In this document: positions 6,396 through 54,800 of the stretch, piece by piece | Position numbering within the stretch: position 1 is the first letter of the stretch | Layout: each line of letters opens with the position of its first letter | NCBI GenBank assembly: GCA_018062825.1 | Contig: JAGORL010000002.1 | Coordinates: 1,629-65,628, forward strand | Length of the DNA stretch: 64,000 nucleotides | Direction: 5' to 3' | Source of the DNA: Patescibacteria group bacterium | GTDB taxonomy: Bacteria > Patescibacteriota > Patescibacteriia > UBA9934 | Translations under genes and position numbers: made by a program | The notes under the pieces: model-generated | The model's input: the letters and a program-made list of their open reading frames with translations, nothing else | The model's database searches: none | What the model was told of the DNA's origin: nothing

Positions 6396-8048
6396 CTACA
6401 CAACATTTCCTCCAAAAGCCCCCAAAAGCGCATCGACCGTATTTTCTACCTGTTCACGCTTTTGAAGTACCACCTCAAGGTGAACCGGGCGCATCACAAT
6501 CGTCTCAATGCCCGCACATACCATAAGAGACGTTTTATTATCCTTGAACTTCTCAGCGTGAATAGCGTACGGAACCTCCAAGATAATACGACCTCCGGAA
6601 ACATCCGCAACCGTTGCTGTCTTCATAAGAAGCGAAACAGCCACGCTCTTCTCAGCAACAACACTAATACAGCGCCCCCACTTATCCTTAACGTCATCAA
6701 GCGTAAGCGCAGGTAGTTCAGCGCCATCAGCCGAACTAACGACAGGCTGCCTTGGCGAGCTCTCTTCTACCAGCTTGGAGCCATTTGGCGCACTTGGCGG
6801 CAAGACGGCTCTATTGGTCGGCTTTGCAAATGACGGCATCGGGGCACGCGCAGGAGCGGCGGGAGCAGCTACAGCGGCTGGCGCAGGCTGCGGCGCACGA
6901 ACAACTGGAGCCACAACAGGTGCCGACGGTGTTGCAATAGGAGCAACTGCTGCAACCGGAACGACTGGATAACAAAACCGTACAAAAGCAATCTCAAGCG
7001 GCGCTTGCGGCAAATTACCAAGCGTGGACCTAAAACGCGCCTCTAAAACAAGATCGAGGAGCGATCCAATCTCAGCCGGTTTCAAAGCCTTACTCGCCTC
7101 AGTTTGCGAGCGTCCAAGTTCAGGATCAGCGGATAAAGACGCTTGATCGCCAAGAGAAATATAAAGGGTGTCACGCACCGCCTCCGCAAGTTCATCCGCT
7201 AAATGCTTACAATTACCACCAGATTCCGTGAACGCCAAAAGCTCATTCATCGCTCCATACGCCTCGCGCTTACTTAAAGCTCGCAAGATACCAGCGATCG
7301 TTCGGGCCGCACTTTGCGGTAACAACAAAGAGGCTGTGCTCATGCCAATATGCTGCTCACCGAGTGCTAACAGCTGACCAAATAAACTCTCCGCATCACG
7401 CAAACAACCCTCAGAGCTCTTCGCAATTGCGGCAGTAACGTCATCATCCACCGTCACCGCTTCAGAAGCAGCAATCTTCTGCAAGCGCTTCATGATCTCA
7501 ACCTCTGGAATACGACGAAAATCAAAACGCTGACAACGAGAAAGGATGGTAGCCGGAATTTTATGCAATTCCGTAGTCGCTAAAATAAAAACGGCATGCT
7601 TTGGCGGCTCCTCGAGTGTTTTCAAAAGGGCATTAAACGACGACGTTGATAGCATGTGTACCTCGTCGATGATGAAGACCTTGAATTTAGCGGTGGTTGG
7701 AGCAAACCGTACGTTCTCGATGATATTTTCACGAACATTATCAACACCGGTCTGCGAAGCGGCATCAACCTCCAAAATATCCATCGCTCGACCCTCCTGA
7801 AAGGCCACACACTGCGCACAAGCGCCACAAGGCTCAAACTCCCCCTGCCCCTTACCCTCACACTGCACTGACTTAGCCAAAAGTCGGGCGATCGTGGTTT
7901 TACCCACACCGCGCGGGCCAGCAAAAAGATAGGCCTGGGCGGTTTTTCCCGAGGCAATTTGATTAGTAACTGTACGAATAACATGCTCTTGTTCGCTAAC
8001 ATCAGCGAAACGTTGAGGTCGGTATTTTCGGTAGAGTGCTTCAGCCAT
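6396..8048 (-). CDS. dnaX: DNA polymerase III subunit gamma/tau
   Basis: YRPQRFADV, GPRGVGKTT, Zn-module CxxC..C, DEVHML, and a Pro/Ala-rich linker. Confidence 0.9.
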   Translation of the reverse strand: MAEALYRKYRPQRFADVSEQEHVIRTVTNQIASGKTAQAYLFAGPRGVGKTTIARLLAKSVQCEGKGQGEFEPCGACAQCVAFQEGRAMDILEVDAASQTGVDNVRENIIENVRFAPTTAKFKVFIIDEVHMLSTSSFNALLKTLEEPPKHAVFILATTELHKIPATILSRCQRFDFRRIPEVEIMKRLQKIAASEAVTVDDDVTAAIAKSSEGCLRDAESLFGQLLALGEQHIGMSTASLLLPQSAARTIAGILRALSKREAYGAMNELLAFTESGGNCKHLADELAEAVRDTLYISLGDQASLSADPELGRSQTEASKALKPAEIGSLLDLVLEARFRSTLGNLPQAPLEIAFVRFCYPVVPVAAVAPIATPSAPVVAPVVRAPQPAPAAVAAPAAPARAPMPSFAKPTNRAVLPPSAPNGSKLVEESSPRQPVVSSADGAELPALTLDDVKDKWGRCISVVAEKSVAVSLLMKTATVADVSGGRIILEVPYAIHAEKFKDNKTSLMVCAGIETIVMRPVHLEVVLQKREQVENTVDALLGAFGGNVV

Positions 8049-8103
8049 ATGGAAGGAGTGTAAAACATACGGCGGAATGGCGGAAGGGTAAAGGTGGGAA
8101 GGT

Positions 8104-8460
8104 TTAATGCTTGAAAATCTTTGAATAGCTAGCGATCATGCGTGATAATTTTCGTGAATCATCGAGGCCTTTAGTAAAAGTATCCTGAGAAAAATAACCC
8201 AAATCAAAACCTGCATAAAATAACGAACGAACTTCACCACACGAACCTTTTGCAATCAGTAAATAATTAGCCATGGTTTTAGTTGAATGCGATTCATGAC
8301 CTTCCGCTATATTGTTCATCACCGACAAAGAAGCACGACGCATTTGAGAACGAAAATCACGATCAATGACACTTTTTGTAGAGGAATAAACAAAAGTAAC
8401 AAGCTGCCTAGCCTCTTGCCAGATACGCAAATCTTCGAATGTCTTATATGCCTTATCCAT
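8104..8460 (-). CDS. four-helix-bundle protein (23S rRNA intervening-sequence protein family; Avd-like)
   Basis: 118 aa; RIWQEARQLVTFVY ... MNNIAEGHE ... GSCGEVRSL is characteristic of the TIGR02436-type family. Confidence 0.8.
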   Translation of the reverse strand: MDKAYKTFEDLRIWQEARQLVTFVYSSTKSVIDRDFRSQMRRASLSVMNNIAEGHESHSTKTMANYLLIAKGSCGEVRSLFYAGFDLGYFSQDTFTKGLDDSRKLSRMIASYSKIFKH

Positions 8461-8470
8461 ATCACTAACG

Positions 8471-8547
8471 ACCCCTTCTTGCCCTCCACCTTCACCCCTC
8501 CTCCCTTCACCCTTCCGCCCTTCCTCCTTTCCACCCTTCCGCCCCCA
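8471..8547 (-). repeat. G-rich (sense-strand) purine repeat tract, GGCGGAAGGG / GGAAAGG units
   Basis: Minus strand reads GGGGGCGGAAGGGTGGAAAGGAGGAAGGGCGGAAGGGTGAAGGGAGGAGGGGTGAAGG. It starts at the TAG stop of the upstream ATPase gene. Confidence 0.6.
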
Positions 8548-11088
8548 CTACCCCATCGGCGGCTTCACCGGTGGAGCCACTGGACGTGCCTTGTTCATAC
8601 CCGAACGCTCCATAATGTCTCGCTCTACGATCGATTTATCCTGACCGTACTGCAAACGAGAGATCTCCTTAAGAGCATCACCAACCCGGCGGTTACCTTT
8701 CTCAATCGGAATCGCCTTCATGGTAAACGGCTTAGCCTGGGCGTTCTCAATGATCATCTTCACGTTCCAGGTGTACATGTCGGTATTCATGAGGTCATAG
8801 CCGCTAAAAGTTGGAGCAAACACCTTCTCGAGTGTTTCAACATCTTCCGGACCAACACGCGCCACAAACATGTTTCCAACGTTACCCAAAACTGCATCAC
8901 GGATCTCACTCTTCCCATCTTTCACAAGCTGACCCATGTACTGGTGCGCCAAAATCATGTTCAAACGATACTTACGCGCCTCAGACAAAATCGTGGCAAT
9001 ACTTGGGGTAATAAAGTTCTGGAACTCGTCGATATACAGGTAAAAGTCATGGCGTTCACTCTCTGGAATATCAGCACGTGAAAAGGCTGCCATCTGCAAC
9101 TTAGCCACAAGAATCAAACCAAGAAGCGAAGCATTCACTTCACCGGTCTTACCCTTAGAAAGATTAACGAGCAAAATCTGCTTCTTATCCATGATTTCAC
9201 GGAAATTGAAAGCACTCTTTTGCTGACCAATAATGTTACGCATCATCTCGTTCTCCACGAAGCGACCAACCTTAGAAACCAAGTAACCCATCATTTCACT
9301 CTTATGGTAGTCGCTCGTTTTAGCCATCTCATCCTCCCAGAACGATCGAACAACCGGATCCTTTACCTTGGAAACCCATTCCTTCTGGAAAGCTTCATCA
9401 GCAATCATGCGTGGAATTTCTACAATCGTTCCTGGATTCTGCACATCAGCCATCAAGGTCAACATGTAGTTACGCATGTTGTGTTCAAACATCGGACCGA
9501 TCATTTCCGGTGGGAACAACATGTAGAAAATGCTAATCATTTCCTGCACCACGAAATCGCGCATCTCATCATTTGGTGATTCAAGCATGTTCAAACCCAT
9601 CGGACGCTCAAGGTCTGACGGATTGAAGTAAACAACGTCATCAATACGATTCTTTGGAATGAGCTCAAGAACGCCGTCAGCCAAATCTCCGTGCGGATCA
9701 ATAATACAAACACCTTTGCCGTTTCGAATATCCTGTACGGCCATGTTCTTAATAAACTCCGATTTACCGGAACCCGTTTTACCAATGATGTACATGTGAC
9801 GTCGGCGGTCACTATCTGTCATGTGAATATCAGTACGCACACCCCGATACTCGTTATAACCAACGAGGAGCCCTTCTTTAGGAATGTTTGTTGGAGCAGG
9901 CTGAGTACGCGCAAGCATCCAGCGAATGTTTGGTGTTTCAGTACTAGCAAGCGGCAAGTGCCACAAACTCGCTAACTCTTCAGTGTTAGCGATCAAACGG
10001 TGGCTGTCATCAAACAAGCGGAAAATAAACTCATCAATAATCTTACGCTTAGTGCGAGGAATGCTCTTTTCAAACGAATTGCCGTATTCGTAAATACTGT
10101 ACTGAGAAAAAGCCTGCAAAACGTTACCAAGATACGCTTGAGCCATGTCTGCGGTCTGCGCGGAAGCAACAATGCGAATATTCACCTCAAGCGCTGCCTT
10201 AGTCATCTTGTTCTCAATGCCCTCAAGCATCTTTGTTTCAGCAGCAGACAACCGGCGCTCTCGGCGTTTTGCAGCCTGCTTCTCAATATCTTCCTTAGAA
10301 GACATCCAGCCAGCTTTGGTAGCCCCCGTTTTCGCCTCCTCAAGTGTCATGCCCGCCTGCATGTTGCGCACGATCTTTGAACCAAATGCTCGCCAATCAC
10401 TTGCGGCCGGACGCACCAAAAACTGCACCGCTACGCCATCGGTCTCAAGCACTTTTGATAGTGCATTAGTAAGCGCGTTAACCGGATCACCCTCAATCTC
10501 TTTAAAGGTTTTAATCGGGAAAGCATTTTCACGCTTAAACTTCACGTGACCAGCCACGGTAACGCCGGTTGGTGAAAAAATATTGTAATCAACGATCTCC
10601 TCAAGGTAGGCATCGCTCCATTGTGCATGAAGTTGCTGTTCAAAAAATTCCTGATGCTTCTTCGGAACCGTAACGTAAAACGTAACCAACTTCTCATGTG
10701 CAACAAGTTCAAAAGCAAAAACATCATTCCTGCCTTTAAGCCAAGCATTAAAACCCTTCTCAGGCTTCAAGCCGCCAATCGCGGCATAGAGCGTTTCTGC
10801 AATAGCGATCTTCTCTTTAATAGTTGCCGGCGTATCATTTTGCCGCGCCTCGTCCTGATTTTTATAACGAGGAATAGTCACACGCAACGTCACCTGGGCA
10901 TTCTCACCACCTTTAGCACGCGCCGAACGCATAGCCCGAGCTCGCCAATAGAAAACAAAACCAACCAAGCATCCGACCACCGCCAAAACCGCAGCTAGGA
11001 AAAGAAAAAGGAGCGCTATTGGATCAAGACCAGCGCCGACCGTTGTTTCAAGATCCGTTCCTCCAAGGATTTGCAACATAATCACCAT
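8548..11088 (-). CDS. membrane-anchored FtsK/HerA/TraD(VirD4)-superfamily P-loop ATPase (DUF87/TraG-D_C-like)
   Basis: N-terminal TM segment; Walker A YIIGKTGSGKSEF; Walker B FYLYIDEFQNF; RKYRLNMILAHQYMGQL ... VLGNVGN motif typical of TrwB/TraD coupling-protein ATPases. Confidence 0.7.
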   Translation of the reverse strand: MVIMLQILGGTDLETTVGAGLDPIALLFLFLAAVLAVVGCLVGFVFYWRARAMRSARAKGGENAQVTLRVTIPRYKNQDEARQNDTPATIKEKIAIAETLYAAIGGLKPEKGFNAWLKGRNDVFAFELVAHEKLVTFYVTVPKKHQEFFEQQLHAQWSDAYLEEIVDYNIFSPTGVTVAGHVKFKRENAFPIKTFKEIEGDPVNALTNALSKVLETDGVAVQFLVRPAASDWRAFGSKIVRNMQAGMTLEEAKTGATKAGWMSSKEDIEKQAAKRRERRLSAAETKMLEGIENKMTKAALEVNIRIVASAQTADMAQAYLGNVLQAFSQYSIYEYGNSFEKSIPRTKRKIIDEFIFRLFDDSHRLIANTEELASLWHLPLASTETPNIRWMLARTQPAPTNIPKEGLLVGYNEYRGVRTDIHMTDSDRRRHMYIIGKTGSGKSEFIKNMAVQDIRNGKGVCIIDPHGDLADGVLELIPKNRIDDVVYFNPSDLERPMGLNMLESPNDEMRDFVVQEMISIFYMLFPPEMIGPMFEHNMRNYMLTLMADVQNPGTIVEIPRMIADEAFQKEWVSKVKDPVVRSFWEDEMAKTSDYHKSEMMGYLVSKVGRFVENEMMRNIIGQQKSAFNFREIMDKKQILLVNLSKGKTGEVNASLLGLILVAKLQMAAFSRADIPESERHDFYLYIDEFQNFITPSIATILSEARKYRLNMILAHQYMGQLVKDGKSEIRDAVLGNVGNMFVARVGPEDVETLEKVFAPTFSGYDLMNTDMYTWNVKMIIENAQAKPFTMKAIPIEKGNRRVGDALKEISRLQYGQDKSIVERDIMERSGMNKARPVAPPVKPPMG

Positions 11089-11579
11089 TATTCACGTACT
11101 TTGAGCACGCTATCTGTAATAATTTTTGCCTCTTGCGTCAAAAACTCCCGAGTCACCTTTGGAACAAGCTTGAGCCAACCTTCAACAAGATCAAGAACGG
11201 TGCCTTCAGAAAGACGACCGCTGGCAATCATGGCGCGAATCTTCACCGCGATCTCTTCCCCGCGCTTTCGAAAAGCTGGCTTAACGCCATCCGGGATCTG
11301 AACGTAGAGATTTTTCAAGCGAGCAGACAAGGCCTCCTCAACATGCGAGAGGAGTTCATCTTTTGCTCGTGGTACTTCTCGTGCTGCCTGAAGCGCCGCG
11401 GCACGTGCCTCGGAAACCGCTGCTGGATCTGCCTCCATCTGCACCGGAGCCTGTTCGGGAGCAGCTATCTCAGGGGAGTATTCCGCCTGCGGAATCTCCC
11501 GCTCTGACACAGTAGTCAAATCTAAAACCTCCGCGCCAAGCAGATTTGGGGCTTCACCCGTCGTCTCACGATCGCTCAT
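11088..11579 (-). CDS. hypothetical protein (acidic N-terminus, helical C-terminus), translationally coupled to the ATPase
   Basis: Stop overlaps the ATPase start (ATGA). An extended -10 (TGTTACAAT) lies upstream. Confidence 0.5.
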   Translation of the reverse strand: MSDRETTGEAPNLLGAEVLDLTTVSEREIPQAEYSPEIAAPEQAPVQMEADPAAVSEARAAALQAAREVPRAKDELLSHVEEALSARLKNLYVQIPDGVKPAFRKRGEEIAVKIRAMIASGRLSEGTVLDLVEGWLKLVPKVTREFLTQEAKIITDSVLKVRE

Positions 11580-11600
11580 ATAGGCATATTGTAACAGATA

Positions 11601-11634
11601 AACAAAAGAGCACGGACGTCAGGTCGCGTGCTCT
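11601..11634 (-). terminator. rho-independent terminator of cysS (AGAGCACG ... CGTGCTCT + TTTTG)
   Basis: 8-bp stem followed by a U-tract on the minus strand. Confidence 0.75.
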
Positions 11635-11649
11635 TTCTCACACTATCCC

Positions 11650-13038
11650 CTATACCCTATTCCCTTCCTTCACCCTCTGCCCCTCAGCTGTATCCTCAAC
11701 CACAAACCCAAGTTCGGCAATTGCATCACGCAATCTATCTGAAGCTGAAAAATCTTTGTTAGATCGAGCGGCGGCACGTTCATCAAGTAGTGCCTGCACA
11801 CTTGGCGGCACAAGTACCGGTCGCGCGACCACGTCATCAAGCGTCAAACCAAGCACTTCATCAAAAGCCAAAAGAGTAGCGGCTTTAGTCGAACTAACAA
11901 CATTTGCGTCACTAACAAGCTCCCACAAGACCGCCAAAGCCCCTGGCGTATCAAGGTCATCGCTAACGCGTGCCATAAAGCGATCAACGTACCCAGTATC
12001 AGGAGTACTTGGCTTTTCAAGCGTACGAGCAAGATCGATCAAGCGATTTAGTGCTTGATGAGAAGCGCCAAGCGCTTCAAACGTAAAGTTCTGCGGGGTT
12101 CGGTAATGCGCCTGCAAAATAAAGTAACGGAAATCGAACGGGGAAAAACCCTTAGCTTCAAGATCATCAAGAGAGTACGTATTTCCAAGCGATTTACTCA
12201 TCTTGCCGCCATCAACCAGTAAAAACTCATTGTGCATCCAAAGGTTTGCCTCCAAAACTCCACGAGCACCAAGGGTTTGCGCCAACTCATTCTCATGATG
12301 CACCGCAATGTGATCAATGCCACCCGTATGAATATCAAAAGGAACGCCTAAATACTTCTCCCCCATGGCTGAACACTCAATATGCCAACCCGGAAAACCC
12401 TTACCCCATGGCGACTCCCACTCCATATGACGCTTCTCGCCAGCCGGTGAAAACTTCCACAAGGCAAAGTCAGCGGCACTACGCTTACCATCGGTCTCAA
12501 CACGAGCTCCCCCTTCTTTCTCCTCCATCTTCTGCCCAGAAAGCTGGCCGTACTCCGGCAGCTTGGCAACATCAAAATAAATGCCGTCATCCGTGCGGTA
12601 CGTAAAACCATTCTTCTGAAGCTCTTCAACCATGGCAATCTGCTCAGCAATATGATCAGTAGCCTTAGGAATAACGGTTGGCATCAGATTGTTCACTCGA
12701 CGAATATCGGCAAGAAAAAGTTTAGTGTATTCGTCAGCAATATCCCACGCCGTTTTACCCTTCTTCTTGGAAGCAACCTCAAGCTTATCCTCGCCGCTTG
12801 ATGCGTCATCAGTTAAATGACCAACATCCGTAATATTCATGACCGCCGTCACCGCAAAACCATTCTTTTCTAGTGTACGTCGTAAAAGGTCAGCAAAAAT
12901 AAATGATCGCAAATTTCCGATGGAAGCTCGATCGTAAACCGTTGGTCCACAAGAATACATTCCGACCTTGCCCGGTACCTGAGGAGTAAAAATCTCTTTT
13001 TTGCGACCAAGGGTATTGAAAAATGCGATGACATGCAT
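11650..13038 (-). CDS. cysS: cysteine--tRNA ligase
   Basis: YSCGPTVYD, HIGH-like and KMSKS motifs. Start set at the internal Met (MHVIAFFNTLGRKKEIF). The C-terminal GNRV-stop is encoded by the G-rich repeat. Confidence 0.85.
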   Translation of the reverse strand: MHVIAFFNTLGRKKEIFTPQVPGKVGMYSCGPTVYDRASIGNLRSFIFADLLRRTLEKNGFAVTAVMNITDVGHLTDDASSGEDKLEVASKKKGKTAWDIADEYTKLFLADIRRVNNLMPTVIPKATDHIAEQIAMVEELQKNGFTYRTDDGIYFDVAKLPEYGQLSGQKMEEKEGGARVETDGKRSAADFALWKFSPAGEKRHMEWESPWGKGFPGWHIECSAMGEKYLGVPFDIHTGGIDHIAVHHENELAQTLGARGVLEANLWMHNEFLLVDGGKMSKSLGNTYSLDDLEAKGFSPFDFRYFILQAHYRTPQNFTFEALGASHQALNRLIDLARTLEKPSTPDTGYVDRFMARVSDDLDTPGALAVLWELVSDANVVSSTKAATLLAFDEVLGLTLDDVVARPVLVPPSVQALLDERAAARSNKDFSASDRLRDAIAELGFVVEDTAEGQRVKEGNRV

Positions 13039-13088
13039 AGATGTCAGCACAGTAACAGGGGCAACACACTTCATCAAATTCCCTGCCC

Positions 13089-13131
13089 ACAAAAAGAAGA
13101 CCCACCCTCGCCGTTTGGCAAAAGGTGGGTC
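13089..13131 (-). terminator. terminator of GC-rich cassette a1 (GACCCACC ... GGTGGGTC + UUCUUUUUG)
   Basis: Read directly. Confidence 0.6.
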
Positions 13132-13140
13132 GCGCGGTCA

Positions 13141-13704
13141 TCACCACGTGATGCCCACAGAAGCACCCTGGTACTCGGTACCCGTATCCACCCGCCAGCG
13201 AGGGATATCATCCCCCTCAGCGAAGGGCGAGAAGTCGATCCCGCGCTCAGTGCCACCCTGGAGTCCGAAAGCCAGATGCATCGGGAACACGACCACGGTC
13301 GTGACCACACGCTGCTGACCCGCAAACATCACCGGGCGACCAATGAGGTGAAACGGTGAGACACCGAGGTCGCTCGCGGCCACAACGAGCACGCGCGAGA
13401 ACTCCGGAAACGCCGCCGCTACGGCATTAACCGAAACTCCCTGAACGCTGTCCCGCTTCAAGTAGCGCGGCACCTCCACATCCGCCCCCACTGAGCAGTG
13501 AGGACCCTTGAGACGCATGCGACGCTCGACAAACGACCGCCTCACAACGCTCAGAACCGACCACTGCGGCACGAGCACCTGGTTCAAGGGAACGAACAAC
13601 CCATCAGCCTCCTTGCCGAGACCGGCGTAGAGAAAACGACGTCCAAACTCCTGGTGCAGGAGCACGTGCCCGAACAAGAAACCTTCTTGACCATCGTCGC
13701 TCAT
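13141..13704 (-). CDS. hypothetical protein, GC-rich cassette a1
   Basis: Start at MSDDGQEGF preceded by CTTGGAGGTG. The strongly GC-rich segment yields spurious antisense ORFs. Confidence 0.5.
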   Translation of the reverse strand: MSDDGQEGFLFGHVLLHQEFGRRFLYAGLGKEADGLFVPLNQVLVPQWSVLSVVRRSFVERRMRLKGPHCSVGADVEVPRYLKRDSVQGVSVNAVAAAFPEFSRVLVVAASDLGVSPFHLIGRPVMFAGQQRVVTTVVVFPMHLAFGLQGGTERGIDFSPFAEGDDIPRWRVDTGTEYQGASVGITW

Positions 13705-13745
13705 CTCACCTCCAAGGCGACAAGGTAGCGTAACAAAAAACACAA
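13705..13745 (-). promoter_or_regulatory. conserved cassette leader, copy a1 (CGCTACCTTG ... CTTGGAGGTG-ATG)
   Basis: Shared with leaders at 14447-14510, 20870-20898 and 45758-45813. Confidence 0.45.
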
Positions 13746-13792
13746 CAAAAAGCAAACAAAAGACTCGCCGCCCCTTCCGCAGCCGCGGAAGG
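13745..13792 (-). terminator. terminator of cassette a2 (CCTTCCGC-GGCT-GCGGAAGG + U-rich)
   Basis: 8-bp stem followed by a long T-rich run on the minus strand. Confidence 0.55.
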
Positions 13793-13810
13793 TAACGACG
13801 AGCCAGCGCC

Positions 13811-14446
13811 TCACCCGGACACGAACCGATCAACGACATCGGGTCCCTCCACGTGCCTCAGGAAGAGCGGATGAACCTGTTCGTTACGGTCGTACTGGGG
13901 CACCACAACGAACTTGCGAGTACCATCACCGTTTGCGCCCCACAGGTACAAACCGGCCTTGCGCTCCCCGTGATCACGTTCCACCTTGCGGTCGAACACG
14001 ATCGCGAAGCACTTGAGCACGTAGCGAACGCTGTGCGGATCACGCTCGAGGCGCACCAGCCGACCAAGTGACGAGAGCGGAAAGCGCGGCTCGCGCAGTA
14101 CGCCACGCAGAAGGTCGCGTCCCGTCGGCGTTGCCGCATCAAGGAAGCGTCGCCAGATATGCACGTAGGCTTCGTCATCACGCGGCAAAGCCACGATCTC
14201 GAAGCTCTGGAAAGGCTGCTCCACGCCGTTGATGGCAAAGTAGCTGCCACCGGCATCGATGAAACACTCCCGATCCGGATAGCCCGGCAAGGCTGCCGCC
14301 CGAAAGCGATCAATGCCATGCTCGGTACCCACCCGGGTGACAAAGGCCGCCACCACAGAACCACTCTCTTCCCCACGACCGTACACGACGATCGCGCTTG
14401 CTGCCGGGGCCTCACGGCCACGAGAGCTAGGCCGACTTTGACCCAT
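13811..14446 (-). CDS. hypothetical protein, GC-rich cassette a2
   Basis: Start at MGQSRPSS with RBS GGAGGGG. The alternative-frame ORF 13858-14421 has an implausible composition. Confidence 0.5.
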   Translation of the reverse strand: MGQSRPSSRGREAPAASAIVVYGRGEESGSVVAAFVTRVGTEHGIDRFRAAALPGYPDRECFIDAGGSYFAINGVEQPFQSFEIVALPRDDEAYVHIWRRFLDAATPTGRDLLRGVLREPRFPLSSLGRLVRLERDPHSVRYVLKCFAIVFDRKVERDHGERKAGLYLWGANGDGTRKFVVVPQYDRNEQVHPLFLRHVEGPDVVDRFVSG

Positions 14447-14510
14447 GACCCCTCCAGTCCTCGGGATGAATTCCCGCGCCAAGGTTAGATGAAAAATGAC
14501 AAAAACGCAA
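14447..14510 (-). promoter_or_regulatory. conserved cassette leader, copy a2 (TTGCGT-17-TAACCT; CTAACCTTGGC; ACTGGAGGGG-ATG)
   Basis: Aligned by eye with three other copies. Confidence 0.45.
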
Positions 14511-15578: not shown

Positions 15579-15803
15579 TTATTCATCAGCCTCACCGGCA
15601 CCACAATCTTCACAGTCGTCACAACAACGATCAGTATCAGACTCTTCATCGCAACAATCACAACTTTCACCACAGCTCACCTTTCCGCCATTCCCCCCTT
15701 CCGCCATTCCGCCTTTCTTCACAGGCATAGCGCAAACGCCATCATGACAGGTGGCCTTTGGTGCTTCTTTCTTTGCCCCAAACACTGACGAAAGCCATGA
15801 CAT
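15579..15803 (-). CDS. Cys/Asp-rich microprotein (74 aa), hypothetical
   Basis: [74 protein letters not shown]. It lies 5 nt upstream of dnaJ. The middle part is encoded by a GGCGGAAGGG-type repeat. Confidence 0.45.
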
Positions 15804-29312: not shown

Positions 29313-29449
29313 AAGTATTTCAAGTACGACAACAAGTATACAAACCTAATGTTTTACGCAAGCCCGGCTTGTCCACAGCGGAACAAAAGGCGCAGATTAA
29401 AGAGTTTGGAGTATAAAGGAAAGTGAAGATAATGAATAGGTGGCCAAGC

Positions 29450-29482: not shown

Positions 29483-29544
29483 GAATATGCCACAGCACCC
29501 TCTTTCTTTAACACTTTTAACTTTAATACTTTAACCCAACAATC

Positions 29545-31452: not shown

Positions 31453-31503
31453 AGCAGATGTACTCCTCTTTAATCTTTTAACTTTAATCTTTGCTCTGAA
31501 ACC
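31453..31503 (-). repeat. A-rich GATTAAAG repeat spacer between nrdB and nrdA, ending in RBS AGGAG
   Basis: Minus strand reads AAGATTAAAGTTAAAAGATTAAAGAGGAGTACATCTGCT-ATG. Confidence 0.5.
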
Positions 31504-32499
31504 TTAGGTCCAATCCTCAAGCACCGAACCCTTTGAATACTCCGTGGCACGCGCTTCAAAGAAGTTTGCATGCTCCTTAGCGTTCACCATGACATCAAGC
31601 CATTCAAGTGGATTGGTAACGTTGTACATGGCATCAAGCCCCAGGTCATGCAACCGGCGATCAGCAATGTAACGGATGTACTGCTTCACTTGCTCAGGCT
31701 GCAAACCAGGAACCGCACCCTTTGAGAAACAGGTATCAATGAAGGCATCCTCAAGTTTCACCATGTCGTTACAAGCCGCGTACAGCGTATTTTGAAACTC
31801 CTTGGTCCAGAGGTAACGATTCTCAGCGATCAAGTCACGGAAGAGGTGACAAACGCCCTTGCTGTGCAGCGATTCATCACGGATGCTCCATGTCACAATC
31901 TGACCTACACCCTTCATCTTTCCCATGCGTGGGAAGTTCATCAAAATGGCGAACGAGGAGAAAAGTGACACGCCCTCCATGAAACCTCCAAAGACTGCAA
32001 GGTTCATGGCCAGCTCTTCAACGTTATGTACGTTGAACTGCTGAACGTAATCGTACTTTGCCCTCATGGATTCATACTCCAGGAAAGCTGAGTATTCCTT
32101 CTCCGGAAGCCCGAGCGAATCATTCAAATAGGAATAGGCCCAAACGTGTATCGATTCCATGGCCGCAAAGGCCGACAGCATCATTTTAATTTCAGGTTTT
32201 GGAAAGGCCGGGATGAGGTGCTGGTTGTAATTATTATTCACCTCAATGTCTCCTTGGGTAAAAAAGCGGAGAATGTTGATGATGAGGTTTGATTCCTCAG
32301 GCGTGAGACGGAATCGATAGTCCGCAATATCACTTTCCATTGGCACCTCAGTTGGCAACCAATGCGCCTGATTTTGCTTCTGAAAATATTCGTAAAAATG
32401 TGGGTACTCAAACGGTCTGTAAAACGATCGGGATTGAAAGAGTGTTGATGGCTTGCCGGCAGCAGTCGAGACCATCTGTTGAATCGATGTTTGGTACAT
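31504..32499 (-). CDS. nrdB: ribonucleoside-diphosphate reductase beta subunit
   Basis: Ferritin-like di-iron protein (MESIHVWAYS ... EGVSLFSSF). Confidence 0.9.
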   Translation of the reverse strand: MYQTSIQQMVSTAAGKPSTLFQSRSFYRPFEYPHFYEYFQKQNQAHWLPTEVPMESDIADYRFRLTPEESNLIINILRFFTQGDIEVNNNYNQHLIPAFPKPEIKMMLSAFAAMESIHVWAYSYLNDSLGLPEKEYSAFLEYESMRAKYDYVQQFNVHNVEELAMNLAVFGGFMEGVSLFSSFAILMNFPRMGKMKGVGQIVTWSIRDESLHSKGVCHLFRDLIAENRYLWTKEFQNTLYAACNDMVKLEDAFIDTCFSKGAVPGLQPEQVKQYIRYIADRRLHDLGLDAMYNVTNPLEWLDVMVNAKEHANFFEARATEYSKGSVLEDWT

Positions 32500-32729: not shown

Positions 32730-33308
32730 TTAAAAACCGAGCGTGAAATTGACCGCGGTTGCCGCTTGTTGAGGGGCAACATTGATCTCAACGGCGTGGC
32801 GTTCACCGCGCTTGTCATCGTACAAAATAAACCCGTTTTTCAAGGCAAATTCGTACACCTCTTTCGTGACCTTTACGTCTTGCAAACAATACTCACGAAT
32901 CGCTTCAATATTACCCTCTTTCCACCAAGCTACCGCCTGCAAGCCGTGAGCACTCTTTTCAGTGCCGATCGTCGCCTTGGCAACGTCATCAAGCTTAATG
33001 CGATACCCCAGTGATTTGTTAATAAGCGCCAAAAGATCGAGCTGCGGCAACTGCAAAAGGTCTCCAGCGTAATAATTATTCAAAACCGGCATATCAAAGC
33101 CGATAGTGTTGTAACCGATAATACGTCCGCTCTTTTCCAAACGAGCAAACAACTTTGGCAGATCAGCCTCTAAAAATGACTCGTAGGTATCGGTTTCATA
33201 AAAGTAACAACCAACCAAAGAAACTTTCAATTTATCCGTAAAAAAGCCACCAACCTCATCAAAGGTATTCTGGGTTTCAATGTCTAAAACAACGTCGGTA
33301 TTGGTCAT
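32730..33308 (-). CDS. DEDDh-family 3'-5' exonuclease (DnaQ/RNase T-like)
   Basis: VLDIETQ (Exo I), H-x4-D near the C-terminus (YCLQDV). Start set at the internal Met. Confidence 0.65.
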   Translation of the reverse strand: MTNTDVVLDIETQNTFDEVGGFFTDKLKVSLVGCYFYETDTYESFLEADLPKLFARLEKSGRIIGYNTIGFDMPVLNNYYAGDLLQLPQLDLLALINKSLGYRIKLDDVAKATIGTEKSAHGLQAVAWWKEGNIEAIREYCLQDVKVTKEVYEFALKNGFILYDDKRGERHAVEINVAPQQAATAVNFTLGF

Positions 33309-38242: not shown

Positions 38243-38348
38243 AAACTCCCAACTCACCAGCCCCAACGTAGTCCTCAAGGACGAAGTGGAGCTACTCCCA
38301 ACTCTTAACTCTTAACTTTAATCTTTTCACTTTACTCTTTAATCTCCA
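38243..38348 (-). repeat. composite intergenic repeat, copy B: A-rich GATTAAAG/GTTAAGAG tract + conserved hairpin module (38261-38299)
   Basis: Minus strand reads GGAGATTAAAGAGTAAAGTGAAAAGATTAAAGTTAAGAGTTAAGAGTTGGGAGTAGCTCCACTTCGTCCTTGAGGACTACGTTGGGGCTGGTGAG. An inverted partial copy lies at 38162-38197. Confidence 0.6.
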
Positions 38349-39572
38349 CTACGGCCTTGCATCCACAAACGGGATACGAGAAGCGCTTGGATCACGAAGT
38401 TCTGCAAAGTCTGGCCAGTCCGTAGCAATAACAGCTACCTGGGCACTTTGGAGCGCCTCAGGAATACTCTCTACAAAAACTACGCTTGGATACAACGTGG
38501 TCAAACGCGTAGCTGGCGCTGGATCATACACGCGCACCAAAGCTCCGCGCCGAAGCAACTCTTCCATAAGAAAAATCGCTGGTGATTCACGCACGTCATC
38601 GGTTCCCGCCTTAAACGCCAAACCAAACTGAGCCACCACAACGCCAGCAAGAGATCCGCCAGCAGCTTGAGCAATCTTGTCTGCGTAATACGAAATACGA
38701 TCAGCGTTAACGCTATAGGCAGCGCTCAGAATACTCGTTGGCGCCGAAGCCTCTACCGAAAACCGCTGAAGCGCCCGAACATCTTTTGGAAAGCAACCAC
38801 CACCCCAGCCAAGACCGTATCGCAGAAACTTCTTGCCGATACGATCGTCAAAACCCAGTGACTGCAAAACCGCCGCCGGATTTGCACCAACCGCCTCGGC
38901 AATGCGTGAAAGCTCATTCGCGTAACTCACCTTCACCGCTAAAAATGCATTCGCAGCATATTTACTCATCTCAGCAGAAGCGCAATCAAGCGCCACATAC
39001 GGCGTACCGCTCTCAATCCAAAAGGCATACACCTGACGTAGTAACGCATGGTCCTGTTCATTCAAAGCACCAACCACAATCCGACTCGGCTCACGAGCAT
39101 CACGTAACGCGGTTGATTCTGCTAAGAACTCAGGATTAGTCGCTACCGCATACCCGCCAAGCTGCGCCGACAAAGCTGCAGCAGTACCAGGGGGCGTCGT
39201 TGACTTCACAACAAGGAGCGCATTCTGCGGCAACCTTGCTACACTCCACAAAGCAGCTGACTCAAGAATCGAAAGATCAGCCGAGCCATCCTCGCCAGAT
39301 GGCGTTGGTACACACAAAAATGCTACCTGTGCAGTAAGCGCACCAACACCCTCAGGAACATCATCAAGCGCCGCGAATTGCAACCTACCTGTAGCAAGCG
39401 CCGTCTGCAGCGCCTCAGTAAAACCTGGCTCATGAAACGGCACCTCACCTCGTTGAAACGAAGCGACGCGTTCAATGTTGTTGTCAAAAGCAATAACACT
39501 ATGACCGGCTTCAACAAGCACTACTGCCATAACCGCTCCCACCCAACCCGCACCAACAACTGCAATGTCCAT
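38349..39572 (-). CDS. UDP-glucose/GDP-mannose dehydrogenase family nucleotide-sugar dehydrogenase
   Basis: N-terminal GAGWVG Rossmann fold, catalytic GGGCFPKD. Start set at MDIAVVGAG. Confidence 0.8.
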   Translation of the reverse strand: MDIAVVGAGWVGAVMAVVLVEAGHSVIAFDNNIERVASFQRGEVPFHEPGFTEALQTALATGRLQFAALDDVPEGVGALTAQVAFLCVPTPSGEDGSADLSILESAALWSVARLPQNALLVVKSTTPPGTAAALSAQLGGYAVATNPEFLAESTALRDAREPSRIVVGALNEQDHALLRQVYAFWIESGTPYVALDCASAEMSKYAANAFLAVKVSYANELSRIAEAVGANPAAVLQSLGFDDRIGKKFLRYGLGWGGGCFPKDVRALQRFSVEASAPTSILSAAYSVNADRISYYADKIAQAAGGSLAGVVVAQFGLAFKAGTDDVRESPAIFLMEELLRRGALVRVYDPAPATRLTTLYPSVVFVESIPEALQSAQVAVIATDWPDFAELRDPSASRIPFVDARP

Positions 39573-41309: not shown

Positions 41310-41378
41310 AAGTGAAAACAGGTGAATAAGAAACTACACTTATGACTTCCGAATTACAACATAGGACAGAAAAAATAA

Positions 41379-41432
41379 TGGAGATTAAAGATTAGAGTGG
41401 AAAGTGGAAAGAGTAAAGGAAAAACGTGGGGA
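41379..41432 (+). repeat. purine-rich GGAGATTAAAGATTAGAGTGGAAAGTGGAAAGAGTAAAGG tract (plus-strand orientation)
   Basis: Same repeat family as 38300-38348, but in the opposite orientation relative to the flanking genes. Confidence 0.45.
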
Positions 41433-54732: not shown

Positions 54733-54800
54733 AAACAACCACTTATACACATCTAATGCCGCCCCTTCCCCCTTTCCGCCTTTCCACCTACACTCTCCAC

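Follow-up and report, generated by a model that had tools for sequence, protein, structure and literature searches.

A four-helix-bundle gene framed by complementary arrays, a putative cassette beside an orphan VirD4-like ATPase module of Patescibacteria

Introduction

Intervening sequences (IVSs) replace the tips of rRNA helices, and the origin and purpose of rRNA IVSs and of S23p proteins have been in question since the 1990s. IVSs of 23S rRNA that carry an open reading frame (ORF) are found in Coxiella burnetii, Leptospira, Brucella and Haemophilus. The IVS of C. burnetii is 428 nt long, carries an S23p ORF inside a 28-bp terminal stem, contains three or four copy-number-variable heptamers (GACAGAT) just before this ORF and is excised by RNase III (PMC4990558). 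Here we analyze a 64-kb stretch of DNA from a Patescibacteria group bacterium (GenBank assembly GCA_018062825.1, contig JAGORL010000002.1, positions 1,629 to 65,628), hereafter the window, in which a gene of the same protein family lies between the gene of a membrane-anchored ATPase and dnaX. The gene, which encodes a four-helix-bundle (4HB) protein, is enclosed by complementary tracts of low complexity.

PF05635, to which the 4HB protein belongs, is the family most often found adjoining the reverse transcriptases (RTs) of diversity-generating retroelements (DGRs) (PMC10053308), and the 4HB family forms toroidal homopentamers (2GSC, cited in PMC4990558). Short-period arrays have been described as well: heptamers of TAACTGA are arrayed in intergenic spacers of Beggiatoaceae, Cyanobacteria and Bacteroidetes (MacGregor 2015, PMC4679880). 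With regard to the ATPase, 5,713 VirD4-like type IV coupling proteins (T4CPs) have been counted in 2,918 genomes of Patescibacteria, only 148 of them near virB4; these coupling-protein homologues are possibly exapted, and that of Southlakia epibionticum is dispensable for epibiotic growth (PMC12102498).

The 4HB gene and its complementary arms

All loci and ORFs below are on the minus strand unless stated otherwise. According to the ORF listing, the genes are arranged in the order cysS (11650-13092), p163, which encodes a protein of 163 aa (11088-11579), the gene of the 846-aa ATPase (8548-11088), the gene of the 118-aa 4HB protein (8104-8460) and dnaX (6396-8048). A preliminary description, made from the DNA alone, had read p163 and the ATPase gene as an operon followed, after a G-rich spacer, by the 4HB gene, and the three ORFs are present on this strand at the coordinates that it gave. 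Its family calls were also correct: the ATPase is a membrane-anchored P-loop protein of the TraD/TrwB/VirD4 type, and the small protein belongs to the 23S-IVS/Avd-like 4HB family. The linkage that it drew between the ATPase and the 4HB protein did not hold. We consider it probable, at roughly 0.7, that two unrelated features stand side by side here, an ATPase module and an inserted 4HB cassette.

The 4HB ORF is intact, and its product is basic (pI 9.4). The protein matches PF05635 over residues 9-110 (E = 2.6e-27; 95.6 bits against a cut-off of 33.8) and TIGR02436 (86.4 bits against a cut-off of 24), keeps 16 of the 16 invariant columns of a 33-sequence alignment and, in a PDB sequence search, matches the IVS-type protein 2GSC at E = 1.4e-9.

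The G-rich tract starts 1 nt after the ATPase stop codon and is 76 nt long (8472-8547; 47 G, 21 A, 5 T and 3 C), so that 62% of it is G and 89% purine. It contains eight runs of three or more G, and on the plus strand it is the most C-rich 76-nt stretch of the 64 kb (0.63 against a 99.9th percentile of 0.51); such a composition is far past chance expectation. The presence of the tract was thus correctly reported, whereas its reading as a spacer between parts of an operon gives way to that of a structural arm of the putative 4HB cassette. This 5' arm is a degenerate, 8-nt-periodic purine array (GGNGGAAG-like) with a period-8 self-match of 0.58-0.64, in which Tandem Repeats Finder detects arrays of period 8, 15 and 24. 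Its C/T-rich complement, the 3' arm, was located by inverted repeats and folding at 8051-8103, begins 1 nt after the 4HB stop codon and ends, with its distal part (ACTCCTTCC), 2 nt before the ATG of dnaX. The best pair of segments, 8071-8107 with 8491-8527, is 37 nt long and 78% complementary; five further registers pair, and the inverted-repeat pairs that join the arms are I1-I6 and I9.

Local alignment of the arms gives a score of 17, compared with 10 for the 99th percentile of the window controls. When an interval of the same size was placed at 2,536 positions along the window, one other site equaled the flank score of the cassette. That site is an inverted repeat of ~45 nt (32424-32465 with 32930-32972, arms ~460 nt apart), which lies in the coding sequences of the ribonucleotide reductase (RNR) small-subunit gene and a 3'-5' exonuclease-like gene and is not of low complexity. 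The minimum-free-energy and centroid folds of a 512-nt transcript both close a long stem around the whole 4HB ORF, and this predicted stem comprises at least 35 bp, with bulges.

The 4HB ORF is therefore predicted to sit in the loop of a long stem, with the anatomy of an ORF-bearing 23S rRNA IVS in an mRNA spacer. Like the known IVSs, the element contains an ORF of PF05635/TIGR02436 between terminal sequences whose complementarity yields a long stem, has short tandem repeats just 5' of the ORF (a heptamer in Coxiella, an octamer array here), is of similar size (428-760 nt for the IVSs, ~500 nt here), has no promoter of its own that the scans detect and would need a host transcript. It differs in that it lies in the spacer of a protein-coding operon and not inside a 23S rRNA helix, Rfam finding two tRNAs and no rRNA in the window, and in that, in place of a unique 28-bp stem, it has long arms of low complexity that can pair in many registers. 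Excision by RNase III, which is known for Coxiella, is proposed here by analogy. If transcription runs through from the ATPase gene into dnaX, pairing of the arms would create a stem of at least 35 bp that carries the ORF in its loop; cleavage of this stem by RNase III would set free a 4HB mRNA and split the ATPase message from that of dnaX. The window ORFs tested include no rnc gene.

The arms also resemble the TAACTGA arrays, which are short-period tandem arrays of variable copy number in intergenic spacers, mostly oriented with, and ending just before, the downstream start codon, and whose phyletic spread suggests horizontal transfer. The TAACTGA arrays are, however, direct repeats without an encoded protein, with one inverted set reported, and 4HB proteins are not mentioned with them (PMC4679880), whereas the arrays analyzed here form an inverted pair around a specific gene family.

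Complementary arms across the 4HB family

The flanks of other 4HB genes were compared in 80 metagenome loci with homologues 40-58% identical to the query, 70 of which were usable for the flank test. For each, the 130 nt upstream of the ORF were scored by local alignment for complementarity to the 130 nt downstream. These scores replaced RNAduplex energies of 110-nt flanks, which discriminated poorly between 4HB loci and controls, since long flanks rich in G+C pair in any case. Flank complementarity exceeded the 99th percentile of random intervals from the same locus in 61 of the 70 loci (Mann-Whitney p = 2.5e-36), and a score of at least 13.5 was reached by 58/70 4HB genes vs 0/86 neighbouring genes (p = 7e-24).

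Arm length in the 67 bracketed loci ranges from 14 to 101 nt, with a median of 32 nt, and the median distances to the ORF are 20 nt from the end of the 5' arm to the ATG and 11 nt from the stop codon to the start of the 3' arm. On the coding strand, purines prevail in the 5' arm (mean 0.67), which is pyrimidine-rich in none of the 67 loci. Its best period is 7-9 nt in 53 of them, while the repeat units vary by locus and include GAGTTACT, GTCTAAAG, GTTAAAAG, GGAAGGT and others. The 4HB gene is co-oriented with its upstream neighbour in 60/65 loci and with its downstream neighbour in 54/62, at a median distance of 67 nt from the upstream stop codon. These comparisons show that the putative bracket is general in the sampled loci and specific to the 4HB gene, and that the gene is co-oriented with its neighbours. 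The same anatomy is seen in finished genomes of cultured organisms, with GGGAAAAGGGG... upstream and CCCCTTTTCCC... downstream in the cassette of plasmid pNsp_c of Nostoc sp. ATCC 53789 (96405-96910), and with AAGGTTCAAGG... upstream and CCTTGAACCTT... downstream in that of Riemerella anatipestifer.

The arms travel with the ORF. ORFs that are 75-88% identical and stand in unrelated contexts share arm units (L145/L148, L153/L159 and L101/L141/L146), and in L145/L148 and L101/L141 the collinear DNA homology is confined to a segment that begins ~65-77 nt 5' of the ATG and stops ~30 nt beyond the stop codon. Because this homology covers the ORF together with its arms, the unit of ~450-500 bp behaves, as judged from these alignments, like a discrete cassette that can be transferred. 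No recognisable recombinase is encoded in it. The copy number of arm units differs among the near-identical elements L131, L133, L135 and L136.

Sequence resembling 23S rRNA was found near the ORF in one of the 80 homologous loci, where it did not flank the ORF. The S23p family is named after its rRNA copies, yet 79/80 of the sampled subfamily loci are not near 23S-like sequence, and the free-standing copies share an anatomy of stem plus ORF that is specific to the family and moves as a unit. No description of such a bracket around 4HB genes outside rRNA was found in the searchable literature, an incomplete library.

Insertion between the ATPase gene and dnaX

The cassette of the window was compared with the 80 best related ATPase loci. 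Gene order is unchanged in the sister locus L167, a metagenome contig encoding an ATPase with 96% identity over 843 residues, and the spacer between its ATPase gene and dnaX is 107 nt long, without a 4HB gene; in the closest 22 genome relatives, this spacer measures ~30-400 nt. A profile HMM scan of the six frames of the 80 loci found a single 4HB gene, in L038, and 79 of the 80 have none. The sister spacer aligns with the window only over the last ~25 nt before the dnaX ATG; it contains a purine-rich periodic tract that has no complement and does not align with the window arms. Four independent assemblies of the same organism contain the cassette in identical form, which excludes an assembly artefact. 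The closest relatives of the 4HB protein share only 55-58% identity with it, belong to various phyla (Patescibacteria, Verrucomicrobiota and others) and lie inside unrelated housekeeping operons, such as recJ-rnhA and cvpA-tatD. The comparison of the loci shows an insertion polymorphism, and we interpret the 4HB gene as part of a putative self-contained cassette of ~500 bp that was recently acquired between the ATPase gene and dnaX. The ATPase part of the locus is already known in kind; the interest of the locus lies in the tract that had been taken for a spacer.

The relatives L001, L003, L004, L010 and L017 have a TAANAT box in common 7-10 nt ahead of the dnaX start codon, so that dnaX may have little or no leader. 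The 3' arm takes up the counterpart of this site in the window (8049-8070), and the cassette may affect the expression of dnaX.

Several observations weigh against this interpretation. L038 (Magasanikiibacteriota; ATPase 53% identical) contains an independent, divergent 4HB cassette (8584-9100) with AT-rich inverted arms at the same junction, the 3' end of the ATPase gene; the chance of such a position is ~0.08, and this cassette leaves room for a weak site preference or a functional link. The whole-region fold beats shuffles only modestly (z = -2.0), as a good fold is expected of any G/A-rich tract that has a C/T-rich partner. The scans that found no promoter- or terminator-like site on the minus strand at 8040-8560 used consensus patterns of the E. 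coli type. The 70 comparison loci represent one subfamily, about ten of them being redundant copies of the same elements, and their ORF starts are estimated. Mismatches of the G.U type in the arms outnumber those of the A.C type by 108 to 84, an excess that is not significant (p = 0.10), so that functions at the RNA level and at the DNA level are not separable. Finally, arm-unit arrays also stand alone in the window, and 11 of 38 other cassette loci contain further copies of their arm unit beyond the cassette; the arms are thus not exclusive to it.

One solo array of the arm unit family (GGCGGAAT/GGCGGAAG), upstream of dnaJ at 15677-15721, has the 18-mer GGCGGAATGGCGGAAGGG in common with the plus strand of the 3' arm, and a second (GGTGGAAAGGCGGAAAGGGGG on the minus strand) was detected by repeat scans at 54757-54795. 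A 74-aa Cys-rich ORF upstream of dnaJ (15579-15803) carries the GGCGGAAT/GGCGGAAG array in frame; it may be a gene or a 5' leader in which a solo array lies. Together with the arrays of other units in several spacers, the ORF-less hairpins of relatives and the cassette of L038, the solo arrays leave room for three further models: the 4HB protein may bind the arrays, solo arrays may have been left behind by cassettes, or cassettes may insert preferentially where a spacer already bears arrays.

Alternative explanations

That the arms are protein-binding arrays and not an RNA stem, with a pentameric 4HB protein binding, on DNA or single-stranded RNA, the 7-9-nt repeats beside its own gene for autoregulation and the solo arrays elsewhere in the genome as well, is unlikely in our view, although several of the results fit it: the periodicity in 53 of 67 loci, the co-variation of arm units with the ORF sequence, the solo arrays in the window and near 11 of 38 other cassettes, the basic protein and the ring-shaped pentamers of its family, and a tolerance of G.U pairs that is not significant. 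The co-variation is, however, explained equally well by common descent of a mobile unit; the strict inversion of the arms and their close abutment to the ORF suit a stem and would not be needed for binding sites; and other arrays of the window, of the AAAGATTA type, differ in sequence from the 4HB arms. Distinctly less probable is that the arms are host sequence, the spacer having held a hairpin or a purine array into whose loop the ORF alone was inserted. Long hairpins without an ORF do occur in the ATPase-dnaX spacer of close relatives, with stems of 20-33 bp (L010, 8466-8570, z = -9.1; L005, 8500-8635, z = -5.7; L003, 8395-8497, z = -4.9) and in some cases with A-rich arms of period ~8 nt, and they may be empty versions or remnants of 4HB cassettes. 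The purine-rich periodic tract of the sister spacer would also agree with host-derived arms, as would the presence of the arm unit elsewhere in this genome and an arm composition that follows the host, AT-rich in L038 and L168 and G-rich in the window. Nevertheless, related ORFs share arm units in unrelated contexts, the collinear homology covers the arms, and the sister tract has no complement and does not align with the arms of the window.

The G-tract might instead act alone, as a G-quadruplex (G4) or as a Shine-Dalgarno-like run controlling the downstream genes. Its eight G runs match the canonical G4 pattern, it contains several GGAGG/AAGGAGG motifs, and further purine arrays of the window run up to start codons, one of them ending 12 nt from the ATG of the RNR large-subunit gene. 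What is constant across the family, however, is the complementarity of the flanks and not their G-richness, many arms being A/T-rich and unable to form a G4, and such a reading leaves the 3' arm at 8051-8103 without a role; we hold it to be very unlikely, and a G-quadruplex as the main explanation was rejected on this family-wide evidence.

The least probable reading, which we regard as largely refuted, is the one closest to the preliminary description: that the Avd-like protein works as a single unit with the ATPase operon, or that the 4HB protein is the accessory protein of a DGR with a distant RT. All the genes are on one strand and closely packed, PF05635 is the commonest family beside DGR RTs, as noted above, and in the distant relative L038 a 4HB gene also lies directly 3' of the ATPase gene. 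The protein further resembles Avd of Bordetella phage BPP-1 (bAvd, PDB 4DWL) as a small, basic 4HB protein of one superfamily. On the other side, the sister genome and 79 of 80 relatives have the ATPase without the 4HB gene, and 4HB homologues stand inside the unrelated housekeeping operons mentioned above. As the preliminary description had already noted, no RT is nearby: no RT domain was found by Pfam in the 43 window ORFs scanned, which include all those of at least 300 aa, and the gene adjoins no DGR RT in the window. No direct repeat of at least 30 nt of the template/variable type was found in the 64 kb, where the longest direct repeats are chance-level copies of 30-40 nt with 63-87% identity, and no template/variable pair of ~100-150 bp with adenine-specific differences lies near the gene. 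The PDB sequence search that retrieved the IVS-type 2GSC did not match Avd, and the NCBIfam matches of the 4HB protein do not include the Avd-specific model of that collection. An origin as a DGR Avd was thus rejected as the main explanation on the lack of an RT and of template/variable repeats in the window and on the evidence from the 4HB family as a whole. PADLOC and PHROGs contain no model that matches the 4HB protein, so these collections gave no link to defence or phages, and no relatives of its subfamily were confirmed in a scan of 2.9 million viral contigs. A lone Avd-like gene should not count as a sign of a DGR.

With the two-feature reading preferred at this locus, a wider proposal can be made that joins several parts: that the PF05635 4HB gene and its inverted 7-9-nt-periodic arrays constitute a discrete, horizontally moving cassette that is widespread in housekeeping spacers of many phyla; that the classical 23S IVSs are copies of it that landed in rRNA helices; and that the ring-shaped 4HB protein recognises the repeats of its arms as well as solo arrays elsewhere in its genome. 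On this proposal, the protein would act in cis or trans as a partner in the processing, regulation or spread of the element. Taken as a whole, this joint proposal is tentative, possible but doubtful. The stem anatomy of the free-standing copies makes the old question of IVSs and S23p proteins testable, through RNase III cuts in mRNAs, the uncoupling or tuning of flanking essential genes such as dnaX and the binding of the 4HB protein to its repeat arrays. For genome annotation, low-complexity purine or pyrimidine tracts around genes annotated as "four helix bundle protein" are best treated as parts of one element.

The p163-ATPase module

The ATPase has the architecture of coupling proteins, with a membrane anchor and a RecA-like nucleotide-binding domain that contains an inserted all-alpha domain. 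The motifs quoted in the preliminary description are all found, GKTGSGKS (Walker A, 9760-9783) at residue 436, YIDEFQNF at 685 and RKYRLNMILAHQ at 705. An N-terminal transmembrane helix is predicted from the hydrophobic segment IALLFLFLAAVLAVVGCLVGFVFYW (about residues 23-47; 10948-11022), which is followed by an Arg/Lys run and falls within a helix of the AlphaFold2 (AF2) model (residues 23-58); by the positive-inside rule, the C-terminus would be in the cytoplasm. The P-loop motor with its all-alpha domain comprises residues 406-830 (8599-9873), as delimited by Pfam, NCBIfam, the TrwB match and structure superposition. Classified by profile, the ATPase falls in the TrwB/TraD/HerA group, with Pfam matches above the cut-offs to PF10412 TrwB_AAD_bind (residues 423-749; 37.8 bits against 20.5), PF01935 DUF87, the HerA central domain (36.7 against 23.2), and PF12696 TraG-D_C (27.7 against 22). 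FtsK_SpoIIIE stays under its cut-off (17.9 bits against 24) and matches the P-loop only, and HerA structures score behind TrwB against the ATPase model; on these scores, the protein would belong to the FtsK/HerA superfamily without being FtsK. The conjugation models of NCBIfam match weakly and far under their cut-offs, the best being conju_CD1115 (54.4 bits against 250) and SXT_TraD (53.7 against 366).

By sequence, the closest solved relatives are TrwB (E = 1e-4) and DotL. The AF2 model of the full ATPase (pLDDT 81) superposes with its C-terminal half on TrwB (target-normalised TM-score, TMt, 0.62-0.67), while against full-length VirB4/TrwK it gives the best E-values with low TM-scores of ~0.3. 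Between the anchor and the motor lies an N-domain (residues 58-405; 9874-10917) assigned to DUF8128 (PF26449) by precomputed Pfam matches, which are present for all the ATPase homologues listed. Modelled alone by AF2 (pLDDT 88, pTM 0.86), this domain gives 13 significant PDB matches, all of which are TrwK/VirB4 chains (E = 1.8e-6 to 7e-4), with a query-normalised TM-score (TMq) of 0.32-0.46, mostly 0.43-0.46, and a sequence identity of 8-10%; VirB4 sequence models match the ATPase in the P-loop region only. The predicted fold of the N-domain thus resembles the N-terminal part of VirB4/TrwK. We place the ATPase in the VirB4/VirD4 superfamily as a motor anchored in the membrane, in which a T4CP-type nucleotide-binding domain with an all-alpha domain stands behind an N-domain with a VirB4-like predicted fold.

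With the plasmid coupling proteins TrwB, TraD and VirD4, the ATPase shares Walker A and B motifs, the all-alpha domain and the TraG-D_C region, and with TrwB a C-terminal half that superposes at a TMt of ~0.65; its layout of an N-domain followed by a motor resembles that of VirB4. It differs from conjugative coupling proteins in its score against the NCBIfam equivalog (54 against 250 bits), in having one predicted transmembrane helix where type IV coupling proteins usually have two, in the 350-aa N-domain between anchor and motor, and in the lack of type IV secretion system (T4SS) or relaxase neighbours. Its gene is not encoded with relaxase or mating-pair-formation genes, its neighbours being cysS, dnaX, dnaJ, dnaK and other housekeeping genes; no relaxase was found in the window ORFs tested or among the neighbours in 80 relatives, and the preliminary description's statement that no other type IV secretion components are visible agrees with the window ORFs tested.

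The ATPase is one of the "orphan" VirD4-like coupling-protein homologues already reported from Patescibacteria (Quinonero-Coronel et al. 2025, PMC12102498). Like those, it is a chromosomal VirD4/TrwB-type ATPase, far from virB4 and without a relaxase, with a wide spread across the phylum. The window and its relatives add to this puzzle a fixed synteny, cysS-p163-ATPase-(third gene)-dnaX, a small conserved partner, p163, a DUF8128 N-domain whose model matches only VirB4/TrwK, and full-length distant homologues in large Bacillus phages. The latter (phage G gp156, SP-10, Goe26 and Nachito) are 21-24% identical over ~86% of the protein, and PHROG 5156, with no function assigned, matches the ATPase at E = 1e-84.

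More than 2,398 homologues are 50-75% identical to the ATPase, nearly all of them from Patescibacteria, and a scan with one genome per species found at least 511 relatives. Nearly every one of the 80 best loci keeps the order cysS-p163-ATPase-dnaX. The ATPase, with p163, is ubiquitous in the lineage and stands in a fixed housekeeping synteny, and the 4HB gene is unlinked to it in relatives; the preliminary description had named both findings as ones that would refute its reading. Of the 80 loci, 52 have a third conserved gene directly 3' of the ATPase gene, and these belong without exception to the more distant relatives. This gene encodes a protein of ~170-250 aa with an acidic N-terminus and without a Pfam family (for example, L038 9185-9934), and it is absent from the window, its clade and its closest relatives. 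Together, p163 and the ATPase constitute a vertically inherited module of Uhrbacteria, Magasanikbacteria, Falkowbacteria and their relatives.

The p163 protein is acidic as previously described (pI 4.96), though its C-terminal half is basic: the pI is 4.3 for the N-terminal 80 aa and 9.5 for the C-terminal 83 aa. It has no match in Pfam, NCBIfam, PADLOC or PHROG, and a word-index protein search retrieved three close relatives and no family. Conservation was established by tblastn on the fetched loci, in which homologues with 26-46% identity lie directly 5' of the ATPase gene in 77 of 80 cases; p163 is the conserved 5' partner of the ATPase. The translational coupling reported earlier was confirmed, the TAA of p163 overlapping the ATG of the ATPase gene by 1 nt (TAATG). 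NCBI and the sister genome annotate the ATPase start three codons later (843 aa), which leaves 8-10 nt between the genes, and a tight coupling is predicted with either start. The most likely role that we infer for the ATPase is to translocate or couple substrates, for which p163 would serve as the adaptor.

Directly 3' of the cysS stop codon, a terminator-like palindromic hairpin followed by a T-run (11606-11636) was recognized by reading the sequence and from the palindrome listing, and it is a probable boundary between cysS and the transcription unit of p163 and the ATPase. Between this hairpin and p163, 8 nt 5' of the ATG, lies a TACAAT box (11588-11593), likewise read from the sequence. 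Because the palindrome is followed by this box, the unit is suggested to start after cysS; it would begin behind the hairpin and run on into dnaX.

Other genes and arrays of the window

The remaining genes of the window are housekeeping genes, including dnaK, dnaJ, the grpE region, hrcA, the RNR genes, murein genes, uvrD, clpB, tgt and others. Between cysS and dnaJ, two overlapping ORFs of 232 and 223 aa (13141-14482) have no Pfam family, and the distance between cysS and dnaJ differs among the relatives.

Other spacer arrays with a 7-9-nt period are also found in the window and, except where noted, are purine-rich on the minus (coding) strand. They include (GGGNNTA)n after a TrmB-like gene (259-310) and (GGGNATA)n overlapping the last codons of cysS (11638-11668). 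An array of AAAGATTA/AAGTTAAA (31464-31497) ends 12 nt before the ATG of the RNR large-subunit gene, and 3' of the same gene an ORF-less hairpin (29394-29429 with 29507-29536) has a terminator-like stem in its loop; arrays of these units occur before as well as after this gene. A pair of 55-nt tracts, 71% complementary and 3 kb apart (38292-38350 with 41376-41430), encloses three genes, and its arm at 41376-41430 is pyrimidine-rich on the coding strand.

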